Positions 44,323 through 64,000 of a stretch of 64,000 nucleotides of DNA are shown piece by piece (the stretch's first letter is position 1; each line of letters begins with the position of its first letter). The notes below the pieces were generated by a model. That model ran no database searches. It had not been told where the DNA came from and worked only from the letters and a program-made list of their open reading frames with translations. Made by a program: the position numbers and the translations under genes. The stretch covers positions 1 to 64,000 of the forward strand of contig NZ_BAACAP010000234.1 of assembly GCF_045865695.1 (NCBI RefSeq). Reading direction: 5' to 3'. The DNA comes from Scytonema sp. NUACC26 (GTDB lineage: Bacteria > Cyanobacteriota > Cyanobacteriia > Cyanobacteriales > Nostocaceae).

Positions 44323-47300
44323 ATGTCCAAGCACGAGTTTCAGCGTAATTTTGCCGTCATTATTGGGATTAATGATTATTCAAATGGCATCCCACCTTTA
44401 GAAACGGCGGTTCCTGATGCTCGCAAACTCGCTGAGATTCTAGAAGATTACAAATATAGCGTGCGGCTTCTTCTAAACCAAGAAGCTTCTCTGGAAGGAC
44501 TAAACCAACTACTTGCTGCTTTTCACGCACAGAAAATTCCTCTTGCTCAAGAAACGATCGCACTCAATGAAAATGATAGGATTGTATTTTACTTTGCCGG
44601 ACACGGGCTTGCTTTAGATGCATTAGAAAATGAAGAAGGTCCGGCTGGCTATCTCGTACCTGCTGAAGCTCGACCCGGTAATATCAATACTTACCTGCAG
44701 ATGCAGAAACTACATGATGCTCTGCTTGCGCTACCTTGCAAACATTTGTTGGTTATCCTTGATTGCTGCTTTGCAGGCGCATTCCGTTGGTCAAGTCACA
44801 AAAGAAATGTCGTGCGTTTGCCAGTTGTCTACCAAGAACGTTACGATCGCTTCATCCAAGACCGAGCTTGGCAAGTCATAGCATCTGCGGCTGACGATGA
44901 GAAGGCTTTGGATTTTGTTGCATCTCGTGGAACTGTAGAACATCACTCTCCTTTTGCTACAGCACTGTTTCAAGCATTACGCGGTGATGCCGATATTTTT
45001 TTACCAGTTCAAGATGGCACACCAACTGGGGATGGAGTCATTACAGCAACAGAACTCTACGTTTATCTGGGGGCGAAATTGGCGACAATGACTCAAAAAC
45101 TCCACAGTCGCCAAACTCCTGGTTTATATCACTTAGCAAAACATGACAACGGGGAATACATTTTTCTAGTTCCCGGTCACAAATTGAACTTACCATCTGC
45201 TCCTCAATTGAATCTTGAGAATAACCCTTATCGAGGTCTAGAATCCTTTGATGAGGCTCATAGCGATTTGTTTTTTGGCAGAAAGCAATTAACACAAGAG
45301 TTGAGTCAAGTGGTTTGCGATCGCCAACTGACGGTAGTCTTAGGAGCTTCAGGAACAGGTAAATCCAGCCTTGTGAAAGCCGGATTATTGCCCTACTTGC
45401 GTAAATCTACTACAGATCAGTGGCATATTATTGACCCAATTCGTCCCGGTATCTCTCCAATAACTGCGCTTTCTCTTGTTCAAAAGCAACTCTCAACCCC
45501 GAAAGAGAAAAAACTGCCACTGCTTGATGTTGTAACTACTTGGTGCAATGCCAATCCTCAAAGCAAACTACTGCTTGCAATCGACCAATTTGAAGAATTA
45601 GTGACCATGTGTCAAAACGATAAGGAGCGATCGCAATTTTTCAAAGAACTGGAACAAGCACTGACTCAACCGCAATTCCATATTGTCATCACATTACGCT
45701 TGGACTTTGAACCACAATTTTTAACGTCTGCTTTTCCCAGTCGTTGGAGGAATGCCCGATTTATGATACCCCCAATGACTCAAAACGAGCTTCGAGAAGT
45801 CATTGAAAAACCAGCAGCAGAACAAGTGCTTTATTTTGAACCACCACAATTGGTAGAGCAATTAATTAATGAAGTGGTTCAGATGCCTGGAGCACTCCCA
45901 CTACTTTCTTTTACTCTGAGCGAACTTTATTTGAAATATTTAAACCGTCGAGGCGATAACCGCGCTCTCACAGAACAAGATTATAACGATTTGGGAGGAG
46001 TTGCTGGCTCTCTTACCCGTAGAGCTACCCAAGAATATGAAAAGTTAGTAAAAATGGATTCAGCTTACGACTACACTATTCGTAAAGTTATGTTGCGAAT
46101 GGTGACTGTAGATGGCGGTGCGATGGCTCGCCGACGAGTCCCTTTGCGCGAATTTGAGTATCCCAATGCAGAAGATAACGAGCGAGTTGAAGAAATTATT
46201 CAACGCTTTACCGATGCTCGATTGATTGTGAGTGGAAAAGAAGTTAATGGGGAACCTTACGTAGAACCAGCTCATGATGCTTTAGTGTTGGGATGGAATC
46301 TTTTACAAAAGTGGAAAGACGATAAGCATCAAAATGAGAGTGTAGTGCTACGCCAACGTCTAACGCTTGCAGCTAATGATTGGTATAACAACGATCGCAA
46401 ATCGGACTATCTCTGGAGTCACGATCCCCGCATTGCCGTGTTAGAAAAAGTCTTAGAATATCCTCCTCAGAAGAACTGGTTGAATCAACTAGAAACAGAA
46501 TTTGTAAAAAGTAGCATTCACAAAAGACAAGATGAACTTGAAGAAGCCAGAGAGCGTTGGCGAATCTCACAAGAACGACAGCAAATTGCTCAGGCTCGCC
46601 TATTAGCAACTCAAGCCCAATTGATACAAAGAGAGGATATTAGTTTATTACAATTGAGTACTTTGCTAGCTGTTGAATCTATGAAACGGTTCAACAAGCT
46701 GGAAATGAGATATCTTTTAGCAGATCAAACCCTACGTCAAGGGTTAGCTTTGCTTCCACGCTCCATCGCTCGTATTAATAAACAGAACCAGCAGAATTAT
46801 ACTTGTTCAAATTCATTAGCTTTTTGTTCTGATGGCAAACATATAGCGATCGCTAATGATGCCATAAGACTGTTAGAAATAAAAAGCGGTCAAGAAGTGG
46901 CTAGTCTGGAGTATGAAAAAAATGTAACTGTTGCTACCTTAAGTCCAGATGGTAACTATGCTGCTACTTACTGTGCTGCTACTTGCGCTCAGAAGGGAGT
47001 CGTCAAAGTTTGGCAGTTAAAAAACCAACAATTAATTGCAGAAATAGTTCGTGCCGAACCCGTACAGTATATTATTTTCAGCCCCAATAGCCAATATATA
47101 CTTATTGTGAGCGGAGGTTTTAGAGGTGTATGGCAATTGACCGATTCTTCAGATGTCATACCTGTAGCATTACCATTGTTAAAATTGCCAGATTTTTCTA
47201 GCGCTCAAGAGCCAATTTCTTTCAGTCCCGATGGCAAATATCTAGCTGAATTTGTTGAAGATAGCCCTGGTTCCGGAGAAGGTAGAAGACAAGTTTGGAA

Positions 47301-48930
47301 ACTTTCTAGTAGGCGGCGAGTTATCAACGAAACAGTAAATTTATCTTCACCTTCTAGCTCTGAAGTCAATTTAGCTGTTTCCGAAAATATCGACGATATA
47401 GCATTTAGTTCAGATGGTCAATTTTTTGCGGCAACAGTGACTCTAACTACTATAAAAGTATGGAAAATTCCTAGTGGTAGAGAAGTTATGACTATGGAGC
47501 ATAATGCATGGATTAATACGATTGCAGTGAGCTTTAATGGTCAGTATATAGCGGTTGGAGACAGAAAAGGAGAAGCAATTGTTTGGGAGGTTCCTCACGG
47601 TTATCAAGTGGCATATATCAAAGATAACCCGACAACTTGGTTGGGTCGTGTTATTTTTAGTCCCGATGGAAATCATTTAGCTACTGTTGGTAAGGGATTT
47701 AATAAAATTGCCAGAGTTTATCACGTGTTTCGCGGTCAAGAAGTTGCCCGCTTGCTTCATGAAAATTATGTTGTCAATATTGCCTTTAGTCGAGATGGTA
47801 AGTATATAGCAACTCAGGAAGATTCCAATCCAGAAAAAGGGTATAGCGATACTGTACGCCTATGGCAAATCGTTGATAACTTTGATGGTAAAATTGCGAT
47901 TGAGCTTGACCTTGAGAACTTTATAAATAGCATCACTACAAGTTCTCGCGGTAAGTATTTGGGGATGACTTGCAGTCAAGCTAGTGGGTTACAAGTTTAT
48001 GATATGGAGCATTATCAGAAGGTAAGATTTATTCATCATGAAGGAGCACATTATGCTGCCTTTAGTACAGATGAAAAATTGGTAGCTACTGTTGGTGAAG
48101 ATCGAACGGTAAAACTTTGGGAGTTAGCCAGCGGTGAGGAATTGCTAGCAATCGAACATAATGCACCCGTTATTGCGATCGCCTTTAGTCAAGATGCAAA
48201 GTTTTTAACTACATTGGTTCACCTGACAACTATATATAGAGACAACATTGAAGTTTTAATTTGTGATGTTATTGTGTGGGACATTACAACTTATCAACAA
48301 GTTGACAAATTAGAAAATATAAAGTTCATCAGCATGAGTCCTGATGGAAATTATTTAGTGATTCTTCCGGAAAATGCAAACTTTTTGGATAAAAATTTAT
48401 TAATTATAAAAGTTGTAGGAAGAAAAGAAGTGACACGGATAACGCTAGATAATGAGGGATTAAGTGAATTTATCCTAAGTACAGATGGAAAGTACTTGGC
48501 TGGTTTTGGCGGATTTTATGGCTCGGATACATCCGTAGATAGTGATGGATTCATCCAAGTGTGGGACTTGTCCGGTGAAGAAGTTTTACCCGTTATAAAA
48601 CTCGGTAGATCGGTAACAAAAGTAGTTTTCAGCCCAGGGAGTCGTTTCTTAGCAGCAGCTGTTGGTGGTGATACTGTAAGAATATGGGATTTAATAAGTA
48701 AGCAAGAAGTGTCACGTATTGAAGTATATGGCGGTATAAATCATATTATTTTTAGCTGGGACAGCGAACATTTAGTGACTGTTAATTGTTTAAACAAAGT
48801 TCAAATCTGGAATTTACAGCCAGAAATTTTAATTGAAGAGGCTTGCAGTCGATTGACTTGCAATCTAACTTTAGAAGAGTGGAATTTGTATTTAGGCGAA
48901 CCTTATCAAAAAACTTGCCCTAATGTCTAG
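44323..48930 (+). CDS. STAND NTPase: N-terminal caspase (peptidase C14) domain, central NACHT-type ATPase and C-terminal WD40/beta-propeller repeats (1535 aa).
   Basis: C14 signature AVIIGINDY, catalytic His (FAGHGLA) and Cys (LVILDCCFAG). NACHT lead-in NNPYRGLESFDEAHSDLFFGRK. Walker A GASGTGKSSLVKAGLLP, Walker B LLLAIDQFEE. Many FSPDGKYLA and VKVWQL repeats. Confidence 0.85.
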   Translation: MSKHEFQRNFAVIIGINDYSNGIPPLETAVPDARKLAEILEDYKYSVRLLLNQEASLEGLNQLLAAFHAQKIPLAQETIALNENDRIVFYFAGHGLALDALENEEGPAGYLVPAEARPGNINTYLQMQKLHDALLALPCKHLLVILDCCFAGAFRWSSHKRNVVRLPVVYQERYDRFIQDRAWQVIASAADDEKALDFVASRGTVEHHSPFATALFQALRGDADIFLPVQDGTPTGDGVITATELYVYLGAKLATMTQKLHSRQTPGLYHLAKHDNGEYIFLVPGHKLNLPSAPQLNLENNPYRGLESFDEAHSDLFFGRKQLTQELSQVVCDRQLTVVLGASGTGKSSLVKAGLLPYLRKSTTDQWHIIDPIRPGISPITALSLVQKQLSTPKEKKLPLLDVVTTWCNANPQSKLLLAIDQFEELVTMCQNDKERSQFFKELEQALTQPQFHIVITLRLDFEPQFLTSAFPSRWRNARFMIPPMTQNELREVIEKPAAEQVLYFEPPQLVEQLINEVVQMPGALPLLSFTLSELYLKYLNRRGDNRALTEQDYNDLGGVAGSLTRRATQEYEKLVKMDSAYDYTIRKVMLRMVTVDGGAMARRRVPLREFEYPNAEDNERVEEIIQRFTDARLIVSGKEVNGEPYVEPAHDALVLGWNLLQKWKDDKHQNESVVLRQRLTLAANDWYNNDRKSDYLWSHDPRIAVLEKVLEYPPQKNWLNQLETEFVKSSIHKRQDELEEARERWRISQERQQIAQARLLATQAQLIQREDISLLQLSTLLAVESMKRFNKLEMRYLLADQTLRQGLALLPRSIARINKQNQQNYTCSNSLAFCSDGKHIAIANDAIRLLEIKSGQEVASLEYEKNVTVATLSPDGNYAATYCAATCAQKGVVKVWQLKNQQLIAEIVRAEPVQYIIFSPNSQYILIVSGGFRGVWQLTDSSDVIPVALPLLKLPDFSSAQEPISFSPDGKYLAEFVEDSPGSGEGRRQVWKLSSRRRVINETVNLSSPSSSEVNLAVSENIDDIAFSSDGQFFAATVTLTTIKVWKIPSGREVMTMEHNAWINTIAVSFNGQYIAVGDRKGEAIVWEVPHGYQVAYIKDNPTTWLGRVIFSPDGNHLATVGKGFNKIARVYHVFRGQEVARLLHENYVVNIAFSRDGKYIATQEDSNPEKGYSDTVRLWQIVDNFDGKIAIELDLENFINSITTSSRGKYLGMTCSQASGLQVYDMEHYQKVRFIHHEGAHYAAFSTDEKLVATVGEDRTVKLWELASGEELLAIEHNAPVIAIAFSQDAKFLTTLVHLTTIYRDNIEVLICDVIVWDITTYQQVDKLENIKFISMSPDGNYLVILPENANFLDKNLLIIKVVGRKEVTRITLDNEGLSEFILSTDGKYLAGFGGFYGSDTSVDSDGFIQVWDLSGEEVLPVIKLGRSVTKVVFSPGSRFLAAAVGGDTVRIWDLISKQEVSRIEVYGGINHIIFSWDSEHLVTVNCLNKVQIWNLQPEILIEEACSRLTCNLTLEEWNLYLGEPYQKTCPNV

Positions 48931-49382: not shown

Positions 49383-49835
49383 CTACTCACTGTAAGCTTT
49401 GCCTTGTAAAACTAAAACCGAACAAGGGGCGTTGTGAAGGACATAACTGCTGACACTCCCTAACAAAACTTCCGTAAAACCTCTAAAACCTCGGCGACCA
49501 AGTACGATCAAATCAGCCTTCCAACTTTTTGCTAAATTGCAAATTGCTTTTCCTGGTTCTCCCACTCGACATGAGGACTCTACTATAACTCCTTGCTCTT
49601 GCGCCTTTCTCTGGTAGGTTTTAAGTAGTTCTTCGCCTTCTTGAGTTTTTTCTTTAATTTCAGATGGAAAAGTGAGTTTTGAGCCAAAATCCACACAGTT
49701 GAAGATCGTTAAGCTAGCTGAGTCCTTTTTGGCTAATTCTAAAGCTTCCTCAAATACCATCTGTGTTTCAGGAGATGCATCAAGAGCTACTAAAATTTTT
49801 TTAAAACTCACGGACAACCTCCTATTGCGTAGCAA
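49383..49835 (-). CDS. Universal stress protein (UspA family).
   Basis: ILVALDASPET... and C-terminal ATP-binding motif LIVLGRRGFRGFTEVLLGSVSSYVLHNAPCSVLVL. Confidence 0.85.
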   Translation of the reverse strand: MLRNRRLSVSFKKILVALDASPETQMVFEEALELAKKDSASLTIFNCVDFGSKLTFPSEIKEKTQEGEELLKTYQRKAQEQGVIVESSCRVGEPGKAICNLAKSWKADLIVLGRRGFRGFTEVLLGSVSSYVLHNAPCSVLVLQGKAYSE

Positions 49836-49875
49836 CCTTCTTTAGTTGTTATTTTCCTACAAAAACGGCTCTCGG

Positions 49876-50391
49876 CTATTTTTTCTTTGAAATCACCTCA
49901 AAATTGAAAGAAGCAATACAGCGATCGTTTACGTAAATTTCTATAGTATGCTTACCAGTCGGATCGCCGGGAGTAATAGTCCAAAAATTTTCAATCGTTC
50001 CTTTTTTTGCTTGCTGTATGCGTTTTGTGACTGCTTCTGTCCCGTTGGTTGATAGTGAAAAGTCTTCTCCGCTATCTGTACTCCATGTCTCTGGTACTTT
50101 AGGTAATTTGATAACTTCACGCCATGTCACCGCACCGTGGTAGTTTTTGAGATGAATTCGCCATCCGTATTTGTTTCCTTCTTTTAATATCACCTTACTT
50201 GTAGGTATAAAGGTAGCTTTACGACTATTGTTATCTCTTAAAACTCCAAACTCCGCTTTATTGACAGTAATAGATTTAACATTCGCTGGTTGCGAATAGA
50301 CTATATCGTTAATTGTAAAAGAAGCAATACTCCAAGGAATTAATCCGCAAGTGGTTAGTACAATAAAGTAAGACCAATGTTTTCTTTGCAT
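49876..50391 (-). CDS. Hypothetical secreted protein with an N-terminal signal peptide.
   Basis: ORF plus hydrophobic N-terminus. No recognisable motif. Confidence 0.45.
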   Translation of the reverse strand: MQRKHWSYFIVLTTCGLIPWSIASFTINDIVYSQPANVKSITVNKAEFGVLRDNNSRKATFIPTSKVILKEGNKYGWRIHLKNYHGAVTWREVIKLPKVPETWSTDSGEDFSLSTNGTEAVTKRIQQAKKGTIENFWTITPGDPTGKHTIEIYVNDRCIASFNFEVISKKK

Positions 50392-50492
50392 GAGTTTCTT
50401 ATCCTATCATGCTAACTATTCATCAATAAAAAATATTATTTTTTTGATAAAATGACGACACTTTATAGAGATTTTATACAAACGGTCACTGG

Positions 50493-51308
50493 TCATTGGT
50501 CACTGGTTACTGTCTCCTGCATATTTCTAACAATTTTTGCGATCGTTTTCCTTGTGCCAAATCTTACACTTGCAGCTAAGATTTTGTTTTTAATTCCAGT
50601 AATAACAACCGTCTTACCTTCCATTAAGGAAGTGTAGCCAATTCGAGCTACAGTTTCCGCATTCATGAGCTTTTTACCGTTAACTATCTTAGAGTCTTCC
50701 ATAGCCGCCCTTTGCTGAAATCCAGATTCTGTTGGTCCCGGACAAAGTGTTGTTACGGTGACACCAGTTCCCTCTAATTCATTAGCAATTGCTTCGGAAA
50801 AAGACAAAACATAAGCTTTGGTTGCAAAATACACTGCCATCAGAGGTCCCGGCTGAAATGCTGCAGTGGAAGCAACATTCATTATTCTGCCGTAACCTTG
50901 CTTAACCATATCTTTAAGAAAGAGCTTTGTTAAATGGGTAAGACTCACCATATTAACTTGCAGCATTTGCAATTCAGTATTAAGGTCAGTTTCATTAAAC
51001 AAACCATAGATAGCAAATCCAGCATTATTAACTAAAATATCTACACTAATCTTTTCTTGTTGTAATTCTTGAAAAATTTCTTCTGGAGAAGCAGGATTGG
51101 ATAAATCTTTGGTAATAACTTTAACTGCAATACTATATCTTTGGTTTAATTCTTGTGCAATTTGAACTAATTTTTCACCATTTCTTGCTATTAGCACGAG
51201 ATTATAACCTTCTCGAGCAAATAACTTCACTAATTCATAACCAATTCCACCAGATGCTCCAGTAATGAGTACTGTTTGCTTCTGATTCTTTTGGGTTGTT
51301 GTTTTCAT
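50493..51308 (-). CDS. SDR-family oxidoreductase (classical short-chain dehydrogenase).
   Basis: TGASGGIGYEL cofactor motif, NNAG, catalytic Y-x-x-x-K (YFATK). Confidence 0.9.
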   Translation of the reverse strand: MKTTTQKNQKQTVLITGASGGIGYELVKLFAREGYNLVLIARNGEKLVQIAQELNQRYSIAVKVITKDLSNPASPEEIFQELQQEKISVDILVNNAGFAIYGLFNETDLNTELQMLQVNMVSLTHLTKLFLKDMVKQGYGRIMNVASTAAFQPGPLMAVYFATKAYVLSFSEAIANELEGTGVTVTTLCPGPTESGFQQRAAMEDSKIVNGKKLMNAETVARIGYTSLMEGKTVVITGIKNKILAASVRFGTRKTIAKIVRNMQETVTSDQ

Positions 51309-51439
51309 GATTTTTCTGACAAGTATTACTTTTTCCTTTGTTAGATTACATAAAAAGGGAAAGCGAGTACTGCTATATCTGTCACCGATTGAGATAAGAT
51401 TTTTATCTTATATCGTTTCTCCATTTGTTAGCGACAGAA

Positions 51440-51715
51440 GATCCCCCCTAGCCCCCCTTAAAAAGGGGGGAAATACTTTTAAAGTTTCCCTTGAAAAGGG
51501 GGGGGAGACTTTTAAAGTTTCCCTTAAAAAGGGGGGAAATACTTTTAAAGTTTCCCTTGAAAAGGGGGGGAGACTTTTAAAGTTTCTTTGAAAAAGAGGA
51601 AAAAATAATTTCAAATCGTCCCTTTAAAAAAGGAAAAATAATTTCAAATTGTCCCTTAAAAAGAGGGGGAAAATACTTTTAAAGTCCCCCTTGGGAAGGG
51701 GGATTTAGGGGGATC
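51440..51715. mobile_element. MITE-like element with terminal inverted repeats gatccccctagcccccc / gggggatttagggggatc. The interior is expanded by five or more tandem roughly 31-bp units. A short 72-bp relative lies at 58519-58590.
   Basis: Terminal inverted repeats at 51440-51457 and 51697-51715. Internal ccttaaaaaggggggaaatacttttaaagttt units repeated. Both copies are followed by cttgaa. Confidence 0.65.
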
Positions 51716-52157
51716 TTGAATATTGTGCTACTGATGAAAAGACTTTTCAAACATCCACTTAGAAAGTTTTTACAAACTCAATGAGCGCTTTTTTATCTTC
51801 ATCTGATAATTCCAAGCCAAAAGTATGAGCTTTACAATTTTGATTTTTTAGTAATTTATACTAAGTAGCTGCCTGAGATACGTACACTTAGGGATTGGGT
51901 ATTAATTGTCTAATTCCCAGTTTCTAGACCCTCAGTAACTATTTTTTATAGTTTTATCTTGGCACTTTGGCACGCTCGGAACTTGTAGAGTGAGTATAGT
52001 ATAGATCGAGTGCAAGAGTGTCGAAAGACATCATACCCCGGTAAAACACCGGGGATTTTTATAAAATCTCATAAACTTTACACTTTAATACAAAAATTGA
52101 TACAGTTGTAGCTTTCCGAGAGAGAATAAAGAGAATTGCCTCTGTGGTTAGCTAAGT

Positions 52158-52976
52158 ATGAAAAAATTGATTAGGGGTCTGCGCGAATTTAAAGCGAGTT
52201 ACTATTGTAGATATCAAGAGTTATTTAAGCAACTTACTCACGGTCAAAATCCTAGAGTATTGTTTATTACCTGTTCTGATTCCCGTGTCGATCCAAACCT
52301 GATTACCCAAGCTGGACTGGGTGAATTGTTTGTCATTCGCAATGCTGGTAATATTATTCCGCCGTATGGTGCAACTAACGGTGGTGAAGGTGCCACTATT
52401 GAATATGCTGTTCAAGCATTGGATATTCGACAGATTATTGTTTGCGGTCACTCACATTGCGGTGCAATGAAAGGGCTGATGAAGTTAGACAAGTTGCGCG
52501 AGGAAATGCCTCTCGTACATGATTGGTTGAAGTATGCAGAAGCAACCCGACGTTTGGTAAAAGACCATTACAGCAATTACGAAGGGGAAGAATTACTAGA
52601 AATTATCATTGCCGAAAATGTACTGACTCAAATTGAGAATTTACGAACATACCCTGTGATTCGCTCTAAGCTCTACCAAGGACAATTAAGTATTTATGCT
52701 TGGATTTATCAAATTGAGACAGGAGAGGTTTTGGCATACGATGCGGAAAATCACGCTTATGTCCTCCCTCAAGCTCAACTTCCTCCAACAGAGGTAGATG
52801 AAACCCTACTTCTTCCCCTTCCAGCTTGCGAGATCTGGAGCACTCCTGAAACTCGAGCAAAAGAGGTTCAACCAATCCAGGAAATAGACATAACTCATAA
52901 TCATCGGTTTCCAATGACATCTCTTTCTCAAGAGCAACTAGAGCGAATTTATCGAGGCTCTTTCAGTGACCAGTGA
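52158..52976 (+). CDS. Beta-class carbonic anhydrase with C-terminal extension (CcaA/IcfA-like, 272 aa). The 3' end is built from STRR heptamers.
   Basis: Zinc ligands CSDSRVDP and HSHCGAM. C-terminal ...SFSDQ* is encoded by agtgaccagtgaccag STRR units. Confidence 0.9.
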   Translation: MKKLIRGLREFKASYYCRYQELFKQLTHGQNPRVLFITCSDSRVDPNLITQAGLGELFVIRNAGNIIPPYGATNGGEGATIEYAVQALDIRQIIVCGHSHCGAMKGLMKLDKLREEMPLVHDWLKYAEATRRLVKDHYSNYEGEELLEIIIAENVLTQIENLRTYPVIRSKLYQGQLSIYAWIYQIETGEVLAYDAENHAYVLPQAQLPPTEVDETLLLPLPACEIWSTPETRAKEVQPIQEIDITHNHRFPMTSLSQEQLERIYRGSFSDQ

Positions 52977-53075
52977 CCAGTGACCACCTGACCAGTAACC
53001 AGTGACCACCTGACCACCTGACCAGTGACCACCTGACCACCTGACCAGTGGTCACTGATTACTGATTACTGATTA
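52963..53075. repeat. Long STRR array (CAGTGAC / CACCTGAC / TGATTAC units) between convergent genes.
   Basis: gtgaccagtgaccagtgaccacctgaccagtaaccagtgaccacctgaccacctgaccagtgaccacctgaccacctgaccagtggtcactgattactgattactgatt. Confidence 0.9.
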
Positions 53076-54407
53076 CAACAGTCTTAATTGAGTGTCTCTA
53101 CCTTCTGCTAGGACAAAGTCTTGTTCTTGGGTCAGTGGTTCGAGTGACACTTCTACATCATTAGCTAATAAGTTATGTGCCGCATCTAACATTAACTCTG
53201 CTATGTCTTTGAGGTCATTACGGTTGTTTAAGTACGTTTTTAATGCTTCCATTGGGTCAATACTGTTACTTGCACTTAACTCTGGAATACGGGGACGAGC
53301 CAATTGGCTGATTAGTTCTGGTTGGATGCTATGGGTATGTGCCGCACTGAGAGCGCGATGCAATTCAGATGTATCAATTAAATCTAATTGTTCCGAGCGA
53401 AGTTTGTAAATCAACCGTACCACAGCATCCTGGATGTTGTGTTTTGCGATCGCTTTCACAATTGCTGCTTGCGGATCTTCTATCTTAGAGACATCAATTT
53501 CAATAGTCTGAAAAGTTCGTGCGGGGAGGGGGCAAAATTCCCACTGAGTATCGCCCCGCTCAATTTCTAACATCACATACCCTTTCTCTTCCTTTTCTTC
53601 ACTAAAATCAACCCGTTCGATACTTCCTGGATAAACAACAGGAGGATTGTTAGACTTATTGAGATTTTGGTGGCGATGGACGTGACCCAAGGCGACATAA
53701 TCAAAGCAAGGTCGTGCTAGCAAAGAGACAGGAAGTGTAAAGCCTTTTCCTACTGCTAAATAGCGTTCTGCTCCTAGAGATGCATTATCCGCCATTAAAT
53801 GACCTAAAAGAATAGTTGGTACATTGGGATCGAGACGGCGAATTTCTGCTTCTAGTACTACCTCAAGACGTTCGATCAGCAGCTGGTTAATTTCTACTAA
53901 CGATAAACCTTCCGTTTCTTGACGAGTCATCAAAGTCGAGCGAGTGAGCCAAGGAAGGGTGAGAATTTGTATTAATCCATTACGAGTCGTAATGCGATGA
54001 GTTGTTAGGCTATCACCTACAATCACTCCCGGTACGCCCAAAGTCCGATAAATACAAAGACTAGCGCCTCCTAACCCTTGAGAATGTTGATCGTGATTTC
54101 CAACAAGCAGAACTGTGGGGATCTTGGCATCTGCAAGGCGACGAAACTGAGCAGCAAAAGCTTCTTGTACGTATGGAGGGGGCGTTGCGTCGGGAAAAGC
54201 ATCTCCTCCAAATATAACTAAATCGACTGGTTCCGATATTGCTTTGTTAATACACTGAGATAGAGAATTGACAAAATCTTCCAATCGCGTATTTAATCCG
54301 GTTTCGGGGTTAATTTTTCCGTGGGAAAAACCACTTCCCATATGAATATCAGAGAGATGAAGAATTTTTATCATATATTTGTCATTGGTCAGGTGGTCAT
54401 TAGTCAT
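53073..54407 (-). CDS. Metallophosphoesterase of the SbcD/Mre11 DNA-repair exonuclease family.
   Basis: Motifs ILHLSDIHMG, FGGDAF, GNHD and GHVH (calcineurin-like phosphoesterase), 444 aa. No adjacent sbcC. Confidence 0.8.
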   Translation of the reverse strand: MTNDHLTNDKYMIKILHLSDIHMGSGFSHGKINPETGLNTRLEDFVNSLSQCINKAISEPVDLVIFGGDAFPDATPPPYVQEAFAAQFRRLADAKIPTVLLVGNHDQHSQGLGGASLCIYRTLGVPGVIVGDSLTTHRITTRNGLIQILTLPWLTRSTLMTRQETEGLSLVEINQLLIERLEVVLEAEIRRLDPNVPTILLGHLMADNASLGAERYLAVGKGFTLPVSLLARPCFDYVALGHVHRHQNLNKSNNPPVVYPGSIERVDFSEEKEEKGYVMLEIERGDTQWEFCPLPARTFQTIEIDVSKIEDPQAAIVKAIAKHNIQDAVVRLIYKLRSEQLDLIDTSELHRALSAAHTHSIQPELISQLARPRIPELSASNSIDPMEALKTYLNNRNDLKDIAELMLDAAHNLLANDVEVSLEPLTQEQDFVLAEGRDTQLRLL

Positions 54408-54478
54408 TGGTCAGGTGGTCACTGGTCAGGTGGTCACTGGTCAGGTGGTCACTGGTCACTGGTCAGGTGGTTATTTCA
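54379..54478. repeat. STRR array (GTCATTG/GTCAGGTGG/GTCACTG units) at the 5' end of the SbcD-like gene.
   Basis: gtcattggtcaggtggtcattagtcattggtcaggtggtcactggtcaggtggtcactggtcaggtggtcactggtcactggtcaggtgg. Confidence 0.9.
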
Positions 54479-54977
54479 CTAATGATAAATGACTTATGAC
54501 AATCATTAAAAATTCAAAATCAAAAAAATTGTTGGTTATCAACAAATTGTTCATTGCAAACTTCTTATTTAAGAATTATATATAGGTTAAGAAGTAGAAG
54601 CAACTTTCAATGACAAATGACAAATGACTATTGTAAAAAGTACCTAAACATACATAAATTCTCCGGAACTACAAATAACATTAGGTATACAAGTACATGG
54701 ATGCTAAGAGGAAGAATCGGGAAAAAAACAATGCCCAATGCCCACTACTTATTTTCATCCGTCCTCGTGTACTCAATTCATGATGACTACTTAAAAGTTT
54801 GCTTTCATTAACCCATGTATGCATTTGTAAATTTGTTGAGAATTTTCCTCATGTGTCATTCTTTTTTGTAGCTTTGGCAACAAAGTAAAGGAAAAAATTA
54901 TCCCTATTGGGTGAGGCTATGCTTGACAAATCTGTGCAAATATGCATTCAATAGCTAAAGAAACGAAGGAGTTTGCT

Positions 54978-55229
54978 ATGTATAAACAAATGTGTTGGTT
55001 ATCACAGTTTGGCGAAAGAGGGGAAAAAGTTCTGCATTTGCAGACTGCACCTAATCAACCTTGGCGTCCTTACACTACGTTTCCACAATTTTCTGTCCCC
55101 GATTACCCAATACCAGGAGGTTCTAAGGGTTGGGCAACTTATCAAAAACTTCTAAAAGCAGGCTGGACATTAGTGCATAGCGCCCGTGCTAATGAATTTA
55201 GCTCTAAATCTATTGAAGTTAAGAGTTAA
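54978..55229 (+). CDS. Hypothetical small protein (84 aa from ATG 54978; the ORF is open from 54942).
   Basis: ORF only. Has a Trp/Pro-rich sequence but no recognisable motif. Confidence 0.3.
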   Translation: MYKQMCWLSQFGERGEKVLHLQTAPNQPWRPYTTFPQFSVPDYPIPGGSKGWATYQKLLKAGWTLVHSARANEFSSKSIEVKS

Positions 55230-55255
55230 CACCATTACCATTTTGGATTTTAGAT

Positions 55256-55325
55256 TTTGGAGCCACTGCATTGGTCGGGTTCCCCGGCTCGTTCGCTGAG
55301 CGTCTCCGTGTTTGAGATAGCAAGT
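55256..55325. repeat. Copy of the gagcgtctccg..ttgagatag repeat family, related to the inverted-repeat element at 1-165.
   Basis: ggctcgttcgctgagcgtctccgtgtttgagatagc compared with cgcgaagcgtctccgcgcttgagatagg at 1-40 and 124-165. Confidence 0.55.
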
Positions 55326-55353
55326 GGCGTGATTTTAGATTGAGAAAGTCAAT

Positions 55354-57189
55354 TTAATAGCCTTTTGCGGAACCTTCTCCACGCGGATCGGCTGCGCCTT
55401 CTAAAGTTCCATCAGGTGCAACTATAATTGTGTTGATATTTCCCCAAGGCGCAGTTTGCTGAATCTTATGTCCCCGTCTTTGTAATTCTGTGATGGTAAG
55501 AGCATCTAAACCTAAAGGTTCTACTTTCAATTCATCTGGTAACCACTGATGATGTATGCGCGGCGCAGATACGGCAGAACCTGCATCCATGTTGTATTCT
55601 AGTACATTAAGAATAACTTGCAGCACTTGAGTGATAATCGTGCCGCCACCGGGCGCACCTACTGCCATGCGGAGACGGCCATTTTCACTAATAATAGTAG
55701 GAGTCATACTCGATAAAGGAATTTTGCGAGGTGCGATCGCATTGGCTTGATTACTAACAAGTCCAAAAGCGTTGGGAACTCCGGGTGCTTTTGCAAAATC
55801 ATCCATTTCATCATTAAGCAATATACCAGTTTTAGGCACTACGACTCCAGAACCAAAACCATAGTTGACGGTGAACGTCAAACTAACTGCATTGCGCTGT
55901 TCATCGATAACCGTCAAATGACTTGTCTCCGGCGACTCAGCAGGTAATTTTTTCTTAAATCCGCGTGCATCCGCTACAGGGTGCGGTTTCAATTTTGGGT
56001 TTTGAACCGCACCCTGTAGCAGACGGACGCGGACATTTTTTTGCTTTAATGTTTGGAAGTCTGCAGGTTTTACCTCGCTAGAAGATCTCGCCCGTTGCAT
56101 ATCTATTTCTTGACGGCGTTGTTTAGCATAAGCATCGCTAAGCAATTGTGTAACGGGTACTTTCACAAAATCAGGATCGCCCAAATGTTGAAAGCGATCT
56201 GCATAAGCGATTTTCATTGCTTCCACCATCAGGTGTAACGCATTTGGGTGATGCCATCCCAAGGATTTCAGATCTGTGTCACCAATAATATTTAAAATCT
56301 GTAATAAATGAACTCCTCCTGAAGAAGGTGGAGGCATAGAACACACTTTAGCTTTGCGAAAATTTCCACAAATAGGGGGACGCCAAGTTGTTTTGTAAGA
56401 TTTTAAGTCTTCTAAAGTTATTAGCCCCCCGTTTTTTGCCATGTCAGCAGCAATAGTGCGGGCGATATTTCCGGTGTAAAAACTTTGGGGATTTTTAGCA
56501 ATTTCTTCTAAAGTTTTGCCTAAATCTTGCTGTACTAACCTTTCACCTGGTTGATAAAATTCTCCGTTACGAGTGAAAATAGATCGTGCAGCTGGATTGT
56601 TGAGAATAACTTTTTTGCGCTCTTCATAGACTTTTAAAGAACGCCAGGTCATGCGATCGCTGAGAATAAAACCGTCTTTTGCAAGAGCGATCGCGGGCTT
56701 CAATACCTCTTGCCAAGATAGTTTACCATAGCGTCGGTGAACTTCATACATTCCTGCTACAGTTCCTGGTGTTGCCACAGCTAAGTAACCATCAACACTG
56801 ATATTAGGTCTAACTTTGCCTTGTGCATCCAAGTACATATTTTTGGTTGCTGTGATTGGCGCACGTTCACGAAAATCTAAAGCTTTAATTTCACCAGTCT
56901 TTGACTCGCGCAATAGTAAAAAACCACCACCGCCAATTCCAGCTGAGAAAGGTTCGACAACAGAAATTGCAAAAGTCGTCGCAACGGCTGCATCAACTGC
57001 ATTCCCACCCTTACGTAACAGACTCACTCCTGCTTCACTCGCTAGGGGATGAGCAGAAACAACCATTGCCTTTTTTGCTCGTAGTGGTGGAATAACGGTA
57101 GCTACTACAGTTTGGCTGTAAAATAAAATACTAAAAGAAAATGCGGTAAATGCTACCCGTTTGCCTTGATTAAAAATAGGGTTTGTCAT
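55354..57189 (-). CDS. ggt: Gamma-glutamyltranspeptidase / glutathione hydrolase.
   Basis: Ntn-hydrolase nucleophile region ETSHLTVIDEQRNAVSLTFTVNYGFGSG and small-subunit GGG motifs, 611 aa with signal peptide. Confidence 0.95.
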   Translation of the reverse strand: MTNPIFNQGKRVAFTAFSFSILFYSQTVVATVIPPLRAKKAMVVSAHPLASEAGVSLLRKGGNAVDAAVATTFAISVVEPFSAGIGGGGFLLLRESKTGEIKALDFRERAPITATKNMYLDAQGKVRPNISVDGYLAVATPGTVAGMYEVHRRYGKLSWQEVLKPAIALAKDGFILSDRMTWRSLKVYEERKKVILNNPAARSIFTRNGEFYQPGERLVQQDLGKTLEEIAKNPQSFYTGNIARTIAADMAKNGGLITLEDLKSYKTTWRPPICGNFRKAKVCSMPPPSSGGVHLLQILNIIGDTDLKSLGWHHPNALHLMVEAMKIAYADRFQHLGDPDFVKVPVTQLLSDAYAKQRRQEIDMQRARSSSEVKPADFQTLKQKNVRVRLLQGAVQNPKLKPHPVADARGFKKKLPAESPETSHLTVIDEQRNAVSLTFTVNYGFGSGVVVPKTGILLNDEMDDFAKAPGVPNAFGLVSNQANAIAPRKIPLSSMTPTIISENGRLRMAVGAPGGGTIITQVLQVILNVLEYNMDAGSAVSAPRIHHQWLPDELKVEPLGLDALTITELQRRGHKIQQTAPWGNINTIIVAPDGTLEGAADPRGEGSAKGY

Positions 57190-57651: not shown

Positions 57652-58053
57652 GTGACAAAAGTAAATATAAATGTAGATGACAACAATTTTCCAAAACTGA
57701 TTCATCGAGTTACAGAAAGTGGAGAACGTATAGTAATTGAACAACAAGGAAAAGCAACAGCTGCAATTATTATCTATGATGATTTAAAACGACTTGAAGC
57801 ATTAGAAGCTGCCATACTCAAAAAAGCAGAACTAGAAGAATATGAATTGCTAACAGTAGCAATGAAAAATTCAGCTTTTGATTTTCTTAAAGACCAAGAA
57901 GAAGATATTTACACCTTAGCTGATGGAAAACCATTTCACGATCTAGAATATACTCAATCGGTAGTAAGTGAACCAGATTTCTGTTCCATAACAGAGCCAG
58001 AAGAAGATATTTACACCTTAGCTGATGGAAAACCATTTCATGATAAAGGGTAA
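57652..58053 (+). CDS. Phd/YefM-like antitoxin-domain protein with a duplicated C-terminal 15-aa repeat (EEDIYTLADGKPFHD, two copies). No adjacent toxin.
   Basis: N-terminus NFPKLIHRVTESGERIVIEQQGKATAAIIIYDDLKRLEA matches the Phd/YefM fold. The perfect 45-nt tandem duplication is seen directly in the sequence. Confidence 0.5.
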   Translation: MTKVNINVDDNNFPKLIHRVTESGERIVIEQQGKATAAIIIYDDLKRLEALEAAILKKAELEEYELLTVAMKNSAFDFLKDQEEDIYTLADGKPFHDLEYTQSVVSEPDFCSITEPEEDIYTLADGKPFHDKG

Positions 58054-58329
58054 GCAATTTCGGATCTTCAGTCTTGTTTGTCACTTTCAGGTAATTTGGC
58101 ATTATAGGTAAAAAATTATACTTTTAGAGAACTTAGTTTGTATTGATAATTTTCCTACTCTAGATAGATTTAAATAATATATTTTAGTTGAAGTGTTTTA
58201 AATTAGTTATAGTCAAGAGAATCCTTCCTTTGACTAAACGTAAAGTGGTAGAGTCGCAAAAATCCATTTGTTATAACGCTAAAAAACTACCATCATACTC
58301 AGATTGCCTACCTTTAAGTATCTACAGTG

Positions 58330-58645
58330 TACACAAAAATTGAATTTACCCCCCTTAGTCCCCCTTTGGTAAGGGGAGAAACAAGAAATTTAGTTCCTTC
58401 CTTTCCAAGGGAAAAAACAGACCTTTCCAAGGGAAGAAACAGAAAATCTAATTCCCTCCCCAATCCATCGGGGCTACGGTGTACACACAAGTTTCCTAAA
58501 GTGCCTTCTTGCAGTTTCGATCCCCCTAGCCCCCCTTAAAAAGGGGGGAAATCTTAAAAGTCCCCCTTTTTAAGGGGATTTAGGGGGATCTTGAAAGTGT
58601 GTACACCGCAGAATCCATCGGGGAGGGTTAGGGTGGGGTAAAACC
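58330..58645. repeat. Nested repeat region: a short MITE-like copy (58519-58590) sits inside a larger inverted-repeat element (..ccccaatccatcggggctacggtgtacacac / gtgtgtacaccgcagaatccatcggggagg..).
   Basis: Inverted repeats at 58457-58488 and 58596-58625. Terminal inverted repeats gatccccctagcccccc ... gggggatttagggggatc at 58519-58590. Blocks shared with 31125-31232 and 51440-51715. Confidence 0.6.
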
Positions 58646-58748
58646 AAGCTCAAATTCAGATTGACAAGCTATTTCCAACTCATACATACACATTAGTATT
58701 TAAGTATAATAACTCACTGGTCACTGTTCACTGCTCACTGCAATAATT

Positions 58749-61700
58749 ATGGTTACAGAATTAACAACTAAAGAAAGCGATAACTTAGATCTCAGACAGC
58801 TATTGAAAACACTCTCGGCTGTTAAAAAAGGAGATTTTTCTGCTCGCATGCCCATAGATCAAACGGGTATAGCAGGAAAGATAGCTGATGCACTCAATGA
58901 CATAATCGAACAAAACGAGCGATTAACGGAAGAATTACAACGTATTAGTAATGTTGTAGGGAAAGAAGGTAAAATTACCGAGCGAGCCACCCTTGGGAAT
59001 GTACGGGGTTCTTGGTCAGCTTGTGTTGATTCTGTCAATACTCTAATTACAGATTTGGTTCAGCCAACGGCGGAAACTGCGCGTGTTATCCGGGCTGTGG
59101 CGAATGGTGACTTATCCCAAACGATCGCACCAGAAATTGAAGGTAGACCCCTGAAAGGAGAGTTCTTGCAAACTGCCCAAATGGTCAATACAATGGTGGG
59201 ACAGTTAAACTCCTTTGCGTCTGAGGTGACGCGGGTTGCTCGTGAGGTGGGTACTGAAGGGAAACTAGGTGTTTTAGCTGAGGTCAAAGGTGTTGCGGGG
59301 ACTTGGAAGGATTTAACCGAGTCTGTGAATATGATGGCGGGAAATCTAACCGCCCAGGTACGTAATATTGCGGAAGTGACAACGGCGGTGGCAAATGGCG
59401 ATTTGTCGAAGAAAATCACCGTTAATGTAAAAGGGGAAATTTTAGAGTTGAAGAATACGGTTAACATTATGGTTGACCAACTCAACTCTTTTGCGTCGGA
59501 GGTGACTAGGGTTGCAAGGGAAGTCGGCGCTGAAGGAAAACTGGGGGGTCAAGCTCAAGTCCCTGGGGTTGCAGGGACTTGGAAGGATTTGACGGATAGC
59601 GTGAATTTTATGGCAGGAAGTTTAACCGCCCAGGTACGTAATATTGCGGAAGTAACAACGGCGGTGGCAAATGGCGACTTGTCAAAGAAAATTACTGTGG
59701 ATGTAAAAGGGGAAATTTTAGAACTGAAGAACACTATCAACACGATGGTGGATCAATTGAATTCTTTTGCATCGGAGGTGACGCGGGTTGCGCGAGAAGT
59801 GGGTACGGAAGGGAAACTCGGCGTACAAGCAGAAGTACAGGGAGTTGCAGGGACTTGGAAGGATTTGACCGATAGCGTCAATATGATGGCAGGAAATTTG
59901 ACAGGGCAGGTGCGTAATATTGCGGAGGTAGCAACTGCGATCGCAAACGGTGACTTGTCGAAGAAAATTACTGTGGATGTCAAAGGGGAGATTTATGAAC
60001 TCAAAAACACCATCAACATTATGGTGGATCAACTCAGTTCTTTTGCATCGGAGGTCACGAGGGTGGCTCGTGAAGTGGGTTCGGAAGGAAAACTCGGCGT
60101 ACAAGCAGATGTGAGGGGAGTTGCAGGTACGTGGAAGGACTTGACGGACAGCGTGAACTTTATGGCGGGAAGTTTAACCGCCCAAGTGCGGAATATTGCA
60201 GAAGTGACAACGGCGGTAGCAAACGGCGACCTGTCCAAGAAAATCACTGTGGATGTGAGAGGAGAAATTTTAGAGTTAAAAAATACCATCAACACCATGG
60301 TGGATCAACTCAACTCCTTTGCAGGTGAAGTCACGAGGGTGGCTCGTGAAGTGGGTGCTGAAGGAAAACTGGGCGTACAAGCTGAGGTCAAGGGTGTTGC
60401 GGGAACCTGGAAGGATTTGACCGATAGCGTGAATTTTATGGCTGGAAATTTGACAGCCCAGGTACGTAACATTGCGGAAGTCACAACGGCGGTGGCAAAC
60501 GGTGACCTGTCGAAGAAAATTACCGTCGATGTGAAAGGGGAAATTTTGGAGTTGAAGAACACCATTAACATCATGGTGGATCAGTTGAGTTCCTTTGCTT
60601 CTGAAGTTACCAGGGTGGCTCGTGAGGTGGGTACGGAAGGGAAATTGGGCGTACAAGCGGAAGTGAAAGGCGTTGCAGGGACTTGGAAAGACCTGACGGG
60701 TGCGGTAAATATGATGGCAGGAAACCTGACAGACCAGGTACGTAATATTGCGGAAGTGGCAACTGCGATCGCAAACGGCGACCTTTCTAAGAAAATTACA
60801 GTACAGGTGAAAGGTGAGATATATGAACTTAAAAACACCATGAACATTATGGTGGATCAGTTGAACTCCTTTGCATCAGAAGTCACTAGGGTGGCGCGAG
60901 AAGTTGGTTCCGAAGGAAAACTCGGCGTACAAGCGGATGTGAGGGGAGTCGCCGGAACTTGGAAGGACTTGACCGACAGCGTAAACTTTATGGCGGGAAG
61001 CTTAACCGCTCAAGTACGAAACATCGCCGCAGTGACGACAGCCGTCGCAAACGGTGACTTGTCCAAGAAAATTACCGTTGATGTCAAAGGCGAGATCTTA
61101 GAACTCAAAAACACCATCAACACAATGGTGGATCAGTTAAACTCCTTTGCTTCTGAAGTTACCAGGGTGGCTCGTGAGGTGGGTACCGAAGGGAAACTCG
61201 GCGTACAAGCCAAAGTACCGGGAATTGCAGGGACGTGGAAGGATTTGACCGACTCGGTAAACTCAATGGCGGGAAGCTTAACTTCCCAAGTGAGGAACAT
61301 TGCGGAAGTGACGACAGCAGTGGCAAATGGTGACTTATCGAAGAAAATCACCGTTGATGTGAAAGGCGAGATATTAGAACTCAAAGATACCATCAACACA
61401 ATGGTGGATCAGTTAAACTCCTTTGCATCTGAAGTTACCAGGGTGGCTCGTGAAGTGGGTACGGAAGGTAAACTTGGCGCACAAGCTTACGTGAAAGGCG
61501 TTGCAGGAACTTGGAAGGACTTGACCGACAACGTAAACTCAATGGCGGGTAACTTGACAGCCCAGGTGCGAAATATTGCGGAAGTGACAAAAGCGGTGGC
61601 AAACGGTGACTTATCTAAGAAAATTACCGTTGATGTGAGAGGTGAAATTCTCGATTTGAAAAACACTATCAACACAATGGTGGATCAATTGAGTTCCTTT

Positions 61701-64000
61701 GCATCTGAGGTCACCAGGGTGGCTCGTGAAGTGGGTACGGAAGGTAAACTCGGAGGTCAAGCACAAGTCACTGGTGTTGCGGGAACTTGGAAAGACTTGA
61801 CCGATAATGTGAACTCAATGGCGGGGAACTTAACAGCACAAGTGCGCGGGATTGCGCGAGTTGTGACAGCAGTTGCTAACGGTGACTTGAAACGCAAACT
61901 GATGCTTGATGCTAAGGGGGAAATTGAAACCCTAGCAGAAACCATTAACGAAATGATTGACACCCTAGCAACCTTTGCCAATCAGGTAACTACCGTAGCC
62001 CGTGAAGTGGGGATTGAAGGAAAATTGGGAGGTCAAGCGAAGGTACCTGGTGCGGCTGGTACGTGGAAAGATTTGACAGATAATGTCAATGAACTGGCTG
62101 CAACTCTGACAACTCAGTTAAGAGCGATCGCAGAAGTCGCAACAGCAGTAACGAAAGGTGACTTAACACGTTCGATTTCCGTGGAAGTACTGGGTGAGGT
62201 CGCAATCTTAAAGGACAACATCAACCAGATGATTGCTAACCTGAGAGAAACAACCCAGAAAAACACCGAACAAGACTGGTTGAAGACGAACCTTGCTAAG
62301 TTCACCCGAATGTTACAGGGTCAGCGAGACCTAGAGACAGTTTCCAAGTTAATTCTCTCAGAGTTAGCGCCACTGGTAGGAGCATCTCACGGCGTCTTCT
62401 ATATTATGGATGGCATAGAAGACAATCCATTCTTAAAGCTATTAAGTAGTTATGCTTACCGGGAACGCAAGCACCTTGCCAACCGCTTCCACCTTGGTGA
62501 AGGTTTGGTAGGACAGTGCGCTTTGGAAAAAGAACGCATTCTGCTGACAGAAATACCTTACGATTATATTAAAATTGGTTCTGGGTTGGGAGAAGCAGTG
62601 CCACTCAACGTTGTGGTTTTGCCCGTCCTATTTGAAGGACAAGTCACAGCAGTGATTGAACTGGCATCATTCCGACGCTTCAATGAAATTCACCTGACTT
62701 TCTTTGACCAACTCACCGAAAGCATTGCAATTGTATTAAATACCATTGCAGCTAGTATGCGGACTGAAGAGTTACTCAAGCAATCGCAGTCCTTAGCACA
62801 GGAGTTACAAGCACAGCAAAACGAACTTAGAGAAACAAACAAGCGCTTGGAACAACAAGCCAAAACCCTAAAAGCTTCTGAAGAATTATTGAAGAAGCAG
62901 CAAGAAGAGTTACAACAAACTAACGCTGAACTCGAAGAAAAAGCAGAGTTGTTGGCGTTACAGAACAAAGAAGTCGAGCGTAAAAATCAAGAGATTGAAT
63001 ACGCGAGACGTTCTTTGGAAGAAAAAGCAGAACAACTCGCCCTTTCCTCAAAATACAAATCCGAGTTTTTAGCAAATATGTCCCATGAATTGCGGACGCC
63101 ACTCAATAGCTTGTTAATTTTGGCGAAGCTACTATCAGATAATGTAGGAGGCAATTTAACTGACAAACAAGTCGAGTACAGCCGAACAATTTTCTCCTCT
63201 GGAAATGACTTGTTAGCGTTAATCAACGACATTTTGGATCTAGCGAAAATTGAATCCGGTACTATGTCAATTGATATAGACCAAATGTTGTTTACAGAAT
63301 TGCACCAACATATCGATCGTACCTTCCGGCAAATTGCTGCTGACAAAAACCTTAGTTTCCACATCGAACTTGCTGCTGACCTTCCCAGAAGCATTCATAC
63401 AGATGCCAAACGCTTGCAGCAAGTGCTAAAAAACCTGCTAGCCAACGCATTCAAGTTTACTGAACGTGGAGAAGTCCGCTTGCGGATGTTTGTCGCAACT
63501 CAGGGATGGTCTCACCACCACGAATCTTTAAATCGCGCCCTCACTGTTATCGGCTTTGCTGTTAGCGATACAGGTATTGGCATTGCTAACGAGAAACAAA
63601 AGATAATTTTTGAAGCGTTTCAACAAGCTGATGGCACAACTAGTCGTAAGTATGGCGGTACGGGATTGGGCTTGTCAATTAGCCGAGAAATCACCCGTTT
63701 GTTAGGTGGAGAAATTAAACTGGTTAGCCACTTAGGTGAAGGAAGCACCTTTACGCTTTACTTACCCCAAGCTAGAGGATATGAGGACTCGTTGATATGG
63801 CGACACGGAGACAGAGTTTCTTCATTGTCTCCTTCTGAAATGACTAGTCAATCTCATTCCTCACCGCAAAGCGACTTATCCCATCCTCCTCTCTCCCCAT
63901 CCCCCACTCCCCCCATCCCCCCATCTCCCAACTCCACCCCTTGGGAACTCCCTGATATCCCAACTCCCACTTCTACTTTATCTACTAATCTCAACACTCA
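58749..64000 (+). CDS. Giant poly-HAMP hybrid sensor histidine kinase: about 12 HAMP-linker repeats, then GAF, coiled-coil, HisKA, HATPase_c and a Pro/Ser-rich linker. Partial: it continues past the window end, which is why it is absent from the supplied ORF track.
   Basis: ATG at 58749 follows an in-frame stop at 58710. Repeated ...[65 protein letters not shown]-box [16 protein letters not shown] around 63070. N-box [12 protein letters not shown]-boxes DTGIGIA and [13 protein letters not shown]. All minus-strand ORFs in 59060-63394 are shadows of this gene. Confidence 0.9.
59005..62334 (+). repeat. Tandem array of about 12 repeats of 276 bp (92 aa), each encoding one HAMP domain plus a connector, inside the sensor-kinase gene.
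   Basis: The GGGACTTGGAAGG phase marker recurs at 59298, 59574, 59850, 60126 and so on to about 62058, with an exact 276-bp period. Units are roughly 85-95% identical to each other. Confidence 0.9.

Follow-up and report, generated by a model that had tools for sequence, protein, structure and literature searches.

The kinase gene and its reading frame

We analysed a stretch of 64,000 nucleotides from the filamentous cyanobacterium Scytonema sp. NUACC26 (assembly GCF_045865695.1, contig NZ_BAACAP010000234.1, positions 1 to 64,000 of the forward strand), referred to below as the window. At its right-hand end lies an open reading frame (ORF) for a poly-HAMP hybrid histidine kinase (58749..64000, plus strand), which is truncated by the window end. 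An initial annotation, made from the letters of the sequence, had described a giant sensor kinase with an open plus-strand frame at this position, and this holds: the frame runs from the ATG at 58749 to position 64000 over 1750 codons without a stop. The closest in-frame stop on the 5' side is the TAA at 58710, and the ATG at 58749 is the first start codon after it. The window covers the N-terminal ~80% of the kinase.

Across 59-63.4 kb the ORF list contains minus-strand ORFs only, as had been reported. The gene had for that reason been called invisible, which is an artefact of the window edge and no property of the gene, since the ORF lister omits ORFs running off the end of the source and the kinase frame was skipped in this way. 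The minus-strand ORFs (59060..63394, 88-141 residues), several of which recur at the repeat period, are shadows opposite the kinase gene and not genes. Differences between the repeat units number 468, 372 and 2016 at codon positions 1, 2 and 3 of the plus-strand frame, and this concentration at the third position identifies the plus-strand frame as the coding one. The kinase gene is real and intact.

Architecture of the HAMP array

The poly-HAMP array covers residues 15-1169 (58791..62255, plus strand) and consists of 25 HAMP domains, as determined from motif counts and from Pfam matches to HAMP (11 stretches, E 7e-124) and HAMP_2 (12 stretches, E 4e-103), each found about once per unit. Thirteen of the HAMPs are canonical, with a GD[LF] motif terminating the first helix, and twelve are non-canonical, with a GxEGK[LI] motif; the two kinds alternate strictly. 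One of each makes up a di-HAMP unit of 92 residues, and in the array as a whole a D1 HAMP comes first, with 12 non-canonical/canonical di-HAMP modules after it. A hidden Markov model of the unit also finds 12 units of 92 residues, the diverged N-terminal unit among them. The earlier figure of about 12 HAMP-containing units of 92 residues, for which a Pfam count had been proposed, is thus correct for the units but not for the HAMPs, of which there are two per unit.

The spacing of the motifs is 92 residues throughout the array, with a single exception of 97 residues at HAMP3. The N-terminal unit is offset from the other eleven by an insertion of 5 residues, and these eleven, starting at residue 144 (59178..62213, plus strand), keep an exact register of 276 bp (92 residues), as seen both with Tandem Repeats Finder (TRF) and in the protein. 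HAMP1, the D1-type canonical HAMP that opens the array (residues 15-60, 58791..58928, plus strand), aligns without gaps to HAMP1 of the Myxococcus xanthus kinase AskA in PDB entry 9TRK. The canonical HAMP3 (59067..59219, plus strand) aligns residue for residue with HAMP3 of AskA; it has a proline in the input helix (Pro106, in LVQPTAE) and an insertion of 5 residues in the connector (EGRPLKGEF), both at positions identical to those in AskA. There are exactly 12 tryptophans in the array, all in the G[ST]W that opens the second helix of the non-canonical HAMPs.

The array begins at residue 15 after a short, acidic N-terminus, and Pfam finds no other N-terminal domain ahead of it. No membrane segment was found in the encoded protein; the top 19-residue hydropathy value (1.81) is in the core of the GAF domain and includes charged residues. 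Matches to SpoIIID, HTH_6, GatB_Yqey, ApoLp-III and other Pfam families were dismissed as spurious, as none has a significant individual stretch and all overlie HAMP helices. We also considered a higher-order repeat of three units, as the units at residues 328 and 420 resemble those at 604 and 696 (92-96% protein identity) and orthologs with 10 units exist; the pattern was too weak and the idea was dropped.

GAF domain, kinase core and C-terminal linker

The array is followed by a GAF domain (residues 1192-1330, 62322..62738, plus strand; Pfam GAF_2 E 1.4e-18, GAF E 2.3e-8) and by a heptad-rich helical linker, presumed from inspection of the sequence to be a coiled coil (residues 1331-1436, 62739..63056, plus strand). 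Part of this linker is covered by the PDB match 7z8n_A (residues 211-517 of the C-terminal fragment used as query). The dimerisation and histidine phosphotransfer (DHp) domain (residues 1437-1504, 63057..63260, plus strand; Pfam HisKA E 9.5e-20) contains the H-box HELRTPL with the predicted phospho-acceptor His1446 at 63084-63086. The catalytic ATP-binding domain (HATPase_c, residues 1552-1675, 63402..63773, plus strand; Pfam E 1.6e-25) contains a GGTGLGL motif. Kinase boxes H, N, G1, F and G2 are all intact. Together with the Pfam matches in the array and the composition of the tail, these domains bear out the order that had been given for the protein. A bilin-binding GAF domain was considered and rejected from the sequence alone, as the domain has one Cys only and lacks a Cys-His motif, and proteins of this family are frequent in phyla that do not photosynthesise.

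The end of the window is occupied by a linker rich in Ser, Pro and Thr (63819..64000, plus strand), with 16 Ser, 15 Pro and 8 Thr among the last 60 residues. The initial annotation presumed that it leads to receiver domains, and the relatives agree: the three full-length ones that were examined have three C-terminal receiver domains each, and in five cyanobacterial orthologs the acceptor Asp is kept in all three receivers. The orthologs have 475-530 residues after the G2 box compared with 108 in the window, so that ~370-420 further residues, with three receiver domains, are expected past position 64000. The linker is the most variable part among the orthologs, where the match to many loci stops at query residue 519 and to others at ~590. 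An imperfect CCCATCCC microrepeat is found at 63880-63929 within its coding sequence; the TRF periods of 8 and 16 are not multiples of three.

Relation to known poly-HAMP proteins

Two units, used as the query against the sequences of solved structures, returned PDB entries 9TRK and 9TRJ ('histidine kinase, Gcn4p') with E 1e-88. When the first 327 residues were compared with 9TRK, residues 8-293 aligned to 9TRK residues 44-329 with zero gaps (E 9e-128). Both entries belong to the work of Coles et al. 2026 (PMC13446029), where two families of poly-HAMP arrays are defined. The kinase-associated family is built from non-canonical group C and canonical group D HAMPs, always with D1 first, and continues with a GAF domain, a DHp domain, a catalytic domain and at least one receiver; the canonical HAMPs of the repeated di-HAMP modules are of group D2 and the linker length is fixed (PMC13446029). 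Tight HAMP-HAMP junctions with a conserved Gly are a further hallmark of this family, and the HAMP3 proline kink and connector insertion are described as conserved across AskA-like arrays (PMC13446029).

All hallmarks listed in that paper are found in the window protein at matching positions, including the alternating di-HAMPs with D1 first, the HAMP3 proline and insertion, the interface Trp, the soluble character and the downstream GAF, DHp and catalytic domains. The window protein is thus best classified, at a probability of roughly 0.85, as a Nostocales-type member of the kinase-associated poly-HAMP (AskA/AskB-like) class III hybrid histidine kinases. The family has already been described and crystallised, and the window protein is an ordinary further member of it.

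The type member is M. xanthus AskA (MXAN_0712; PDB 9TRJ, 9TRK) with 21 HAMPs, and AskB (MXAN_6735) has 31 (PMC13446029), compared with 25 in the window protein. All three are soluble and share the arrangement of D1 and di-HAMP modules, GAF domain, DHp and ATPase, followed by several receivers, which in the window protein are expected past the window end, and AskA has the interface tryptophan and the HAMP3 proline and insertion in common with the window protein. AskA and AskB have been tied to development and to the ambruticin response, and in vitro they bind AskC, MrpC, FruA and promoter DNA (PMC7643160). The host of the window protein, in contrast, is a filamentous cyanobacterium, the protein has no connection with the sensing of ambruticin or the development of fruiting bodies, and the surroundings of the window gene did not reveal an AskC-like partner.

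AskA, AskB and Amb07 have been presented as the bacterial counterparts of the fungal group III kinases (Marcos-Torres et al. 2020, PMC7643160), and a common origin of the bacterial and the fungal/amoebozoan array kinases has been proposed (PMC13446029). The fungal and amoebozoan kinases (Nik1/Os-1/TcsC/Drk1 type) resemble the window protein in being soluble and in carrying an N-terminal array of paired HAMPs before DHp, ATPase and receiver, and the array of the fungal group III kinases participates in osmosensing and in the fungicide response. They differ in being eukaryotic, with output to the HOG pathway (high-osmolarity glycerol). Nik1/Os-1-type fungal kinases have no GAF domain and a single receiver. 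The fungal arrays are also shorter than the bacterial ones (PMC7643160). A fungal group III kinase was ruled out, given the GAF domain between array and DHp, the three receivers in the relatives and the cyanobacterial origin of the closest relatives.

Chemoreceptor poly-HAMPs (groups A/B) and Aer2- or FrzCD-like receptors share the alternation of canonical and non-canonical HAMPs, the tight junctions and the zig-zag of packing states, but they have a separate origin, a methyl-accepting output instead of a kinase and Phe at the position of the interface Trp (PMC13446029). A chemoreceptor-associated array was ruled out as well: Pfam finds no methyl-accepting chemotaxis protein signalling domain, the output is a kinase and the interface residue is Trp. 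The sequence match to Aer2 is marginal (3vol, E 0.0056).

Divergence of the repeat units

The repeats had been described as near-identical, and at the DNA level they are not. TRF reports 9.6 copies of a 276-bp period between 59185 and 61837, free of indels and with 80% matches. Compared in register, DNA identity is 67-83% among the ten best units, with a mean of 77%, and ~60% between these and the eleventh; protein identity between units has a mean of 86%. The proportion of synonymous differences (pS) between the paralogous units is 0.47-0.88 with a mean of 0.66, near the value of 0.74 between genera. Whatever the register, exact repeats in the array reach 44 nt at most, and every 55-mer occurs only once. 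The 44-nt match joins units two periods apart and may be a small gene-conversion tract. With this divergence between units and nearly saturated synonymous sites, the array is predicted to be a poor substrate for frequent homologous recombination, or for collapse in assembly with k-mers of at least 55.

Orthologs, unit number and collinearity

A protein search returned at least 8000 relatives, all with E < 1e-30. Among the matches listed, relatives of 1831-2932 residues (mostly 2200-2900) come from Acidobacteriota, Chloroflexia, Planctomycetota, Verrucomicrobiota, proteobacteria and Nostoc, and show 68-84% identity across >94% of the query. The proteins from distant phyla among them are 68-79% identical over more than 94% of the length. 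For proteins that exceed 2000 residues this is an unusually high identity, suggestive of either horizontal transfer or extreme constraint. One ortholog, in Nostoc linckia NIES-25, is located on a replicon of 1.78 Mb that is labelled a plasmid.

Ortholog loci were compared using the best 80 of 510 related stretches from a genome scan of species representatives. The named loci in this set are nearly all cyanobacterial, mainly Nostocales, and the closest (80-85%) are from Scytonema, Tolypothrix, Fischerella, Westiellopsis and Nostoc. In 71 near-complete orthologs the number of units is 13 (45 orthologs), 12 (8), 10 (9), 7 (4) or 5 (2), with 8, 9 and 11 units in one ortholog each. The unit spacing is exactly 92 residues in all six loci that were checked, save for the 97-residue step at HAMP3, which means that array length shifts only by whole in-frame units. 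Changes in array length are rare and involve whole 276-bp units only.

Units 2-12 of the window align on a monotonic diagonal with units 2 and 4-13 of Fischerella muscicola PCC 7414, at identities of 92, 100, 98, 99, 98, 98, 98, 96, 97, 96 and 97% in order, compared with ~86-88% between units within one protein. By this alignment the window array would correspond to a 13-unit array that lacks the counterpart of Fischerella unit 3, with a conserved sequence of its own at every position. A search for the footprint of the crossover was ambiguous, as window unit 2 has 'TESVNMM' like Fischerella unit 3 and also the unit-2-specific 'ITVNV' like Scytonema and Tolypothrix. In comparisons between phyla, positional identity persists only in the first, penultimate and last units; positional orthology of the middle units at this distance was rejected, as they match a generic unit.

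These data bear on the alternative of an array that is unstable, mis-assembled or prone to recombination, in a gene that might have collapsed or be decaying. Species do differ in unit number (13, 12, 11, 10, 9, 8, 7 and 5), as the initial annotation had anticipated; the window is one unit below the modal 13, without the Fischerella unit 3 equivalent; several metagenome-assembled contigs end within the array; and the 44-nt match could be a trace of gene conversion. Set against this are the mean DNA identity of 77% with no repeated 55-mer, the level of pS between units, the intact frame of 1750 codons with its exact 92-residue spacing, and the occurrence of 12-unit arrays in eight other genomes. 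Moreover, 11 of the 12 units lie on the Fischerella diagonal at 92-100%, which a collapsed or shuffled assembly would not give. We regard instability or mis-assembly as highly improbable, and the earlier caveats about a pseudogene, a collapsed array and a region prone to recombination are not sustained.

In eight loci, from metagenome-assembled or draft genomes, the contig ends within the array. Short-read assemblies, low-coverage ones, can break in the array despite the diverged units.

Constraint on the array

Between the window and Fischerella, protein identity is 98% in the array, 88% in the GAF domain and 81% in the DHp-ATPase part, and the proportion of nonsynonymous differences (pN) is 0.031, 0.072 and 0.118, respectively. 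Synonymous sites are saturated (pS 0.74-0.79, array 0.74). The same order of conservation, with the array above the GAF domain and the GAF domain above DHp-ATPase, is found in 15 other cyanobacterial loci. Across phyla, DHp is 72-82% identical, the ATPase domain 66-73%, the GAF domain 50-71% and HAMP1-3 36-70%; the middle di-HAMP unit reaches 85-91%, a figure biased somewhat upward because it takes the top match among many target units, and the last two units reach 78-85%. From these comparisons the array appears to be the most conserved part of the protein.

High similarity of the modules within an array has been attributed to intragenic amplification (PMC13446029). In this lineage it seems better explained by purifying selection on old copies, and the repeats of the Nostocales lineage appear to be ancient and stable rather than recently amplified.

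Besides the inflated middle-unit figure and the lower value of the terminal units, several points weigh against our reading of the protein. None of the 9 upstream window proteins adjoins the ortholog in the 80 loci, and no partner gene can be inferred from the neighbourhoods of these orthologs. The C-terminal quarter, past the window end, is inferred from relatives that are at most ~85% identical. No study of any cyanobacterial member was found in the literature searched, and the authors of the structural paper consider the signalling role of poly-HAMP arrays still unclear (PMC13446029).

A possible signalling mechanism

The initial proposal of a signal-transmission rod agrees with the published structural model (PMC13446029). 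Given the gapless match to 9TRK and the crystal structures and models of AskA (PMC13446029), two chains of the window protein would form one continuous parallel four-helix rod. HAMP domains are obligate dimers. Neighbouring HAMPs in it would be tightly packed and would alternate between packing states tied to opposite helix rotations, the canonical ones in x-da or knobs-into-holes packing and the non-canonical ones in da-x or knobs-into-holes packing (PMC13446029). Adjacent HAMPs would then be conformationally coupled and possibly tensioned (PMC13446029). A displacement of this coupled equilibrium, along with any ligand that the GAF domain binds, would be passed on as helix rotation via the GAF domain and the coiled coil to DHp, where the rotation would set the autophosphorylation of His1446. 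The phosphoryl group would proceed to the protein's own receivers and from there to partners.

By analogy with the fungal group III kinases and AskA, we favour the array itself as a sensing or modulating element, responding to physical or chemical stress or to partner binding, over a passive wire, because it is the most constrained part of the protein. The GAF domain may instead be the true sensor, of a small ligand, with the array no more than an extension for structure or dimerisation, or a means of tuning that has no input of its own. A GAF domain does stand between array and kinase throughout the family and is called sensory in the structural paper (PMC13446029), and no input domain precedes the array. 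Yet it is among the less conserved parts, at 50-71% across phyla compared with 85-91% for the di-HAMP unit, and a passive spacer is unlikely to hold position-specific residues at 96-100% while synonymous sites saturate. Fungal group III kinases, from what is generally known of their architecture, sense via the array without a GAF domain. A GAF sensor with a passive array is possible, though we think it unlikely.

Another possibility is that the array serves chiefly as a long scaffold on which partner kinases, regulators or DNA dock, rather than as a conformational relay, by analogy with the interactions and DNA binding of AskA and AskB in vitro (PMC7643160). Unit sequences that are position-specific and conserved between genera would suit distinct docking sites along a rod. 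However, the DNA binding has been demonstrated solely in vitro, with no established mechanism (PMC13446029), the Pfam 'HTH' and 'SpoIIID' matches in the window protein overlie HAMP helices without a significant individual stretch and are most likely spurious, the short acidic N-terminus is unlike a basic DNA-binding tail, and a conserved neighbouring partner gene was not found among the ortholog loci. We consider a mainly scaffolding role distinctly unlikely.

The array could further be a position-coded rod, with distinct docking or modification sites at set distances from the kinase, or a tensioned device whose output is set by length. The position-specific residues held despite saturated synonymous sites, together with the most conserved di-HAMP unit, fit such a rod; we put it forward very tentatively, as a rather unlikely idea.

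Upstream DNA and neighbouring genes

The spacer upstream of the kinase gene (58054..58748) contains a conserved segment at 58141-58213, followed by repeat-rich DNA at ~58320-58612 that resembles a miniature inverted-repeat transposable element (MITE). The 73-bp segment is conserved 5' of three orthologs, from Scytonema, Tolypothrix and Nostocaceae, where its end lies ~155-166 bp from the ATG, compared with 536 bp in the window, where the repeat elements lie in between. Promoter-like hexamers at 58123-58170 overlap the segment, which may be a candidate promoter region. The stretch 58320-58612 contains nested inverted repeats, with CTACGGTGTACACAC at 58474-58488 and 58597-58611 around a 29-nt hairpin at 58519-58590, and a tandem pair of 22 bp lies at 58400-58443. 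Parts of this stretch match dispersed sites in many Nostocales loci, resembling a small mobile MITE-like element.

Directly 5' of the spacer is an ORF of 133 residues with a GTG start (57652-58053, plus strand) and a Phd/YefM antitoxin domain (E 8.8e-8). The region 49383-57189 carries unrelated housekeeping and stress genes for a universal stress protein, a short-chain dehydrogenase, a beta-carbonic anhydrase, a metallophosphoesterase and a gamma-glutamyltranspeptidase. Further upstream (44323-48930, plus strand) is a protein of 1535 residues with a caspase-like Peptidase_C14 domain (residues 8-223), an nSTAND1 NTPase domain (residues 302-694, E 4.5e-103) and many WD40 repeats, which is a STAND-type architecture. 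In the orthologs the neighbouring genes vary, the commonest (11-12 loci) being another hybrid kinase and an unrelated large protein.

Implications

For annotation, a 5.2-kb stretch that carries antisense shadow ORFs alone in the ORF list is a single intact kinase gene cut at the window edge. If the array were a position-coded rod, its units would not be interchangeable relay modules, and the unit near-identity described for this family would reflect selection and not recent amplification; as a tensioned device, it would have an output set by its length of 13, 12, 10, 7 or 5 units. The biological gain is modest, as the family is known and has a crystal structure. Two comparative points bear on the question of poly-HAMP function: the array appears more constrained than the catalytic core, and the Nostocales units appear ancient and positionally conserved, not recently amplified. 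What the window protein adds is this evolutionary picture of an apparently old, positionally conserved and very strongly constrained array.

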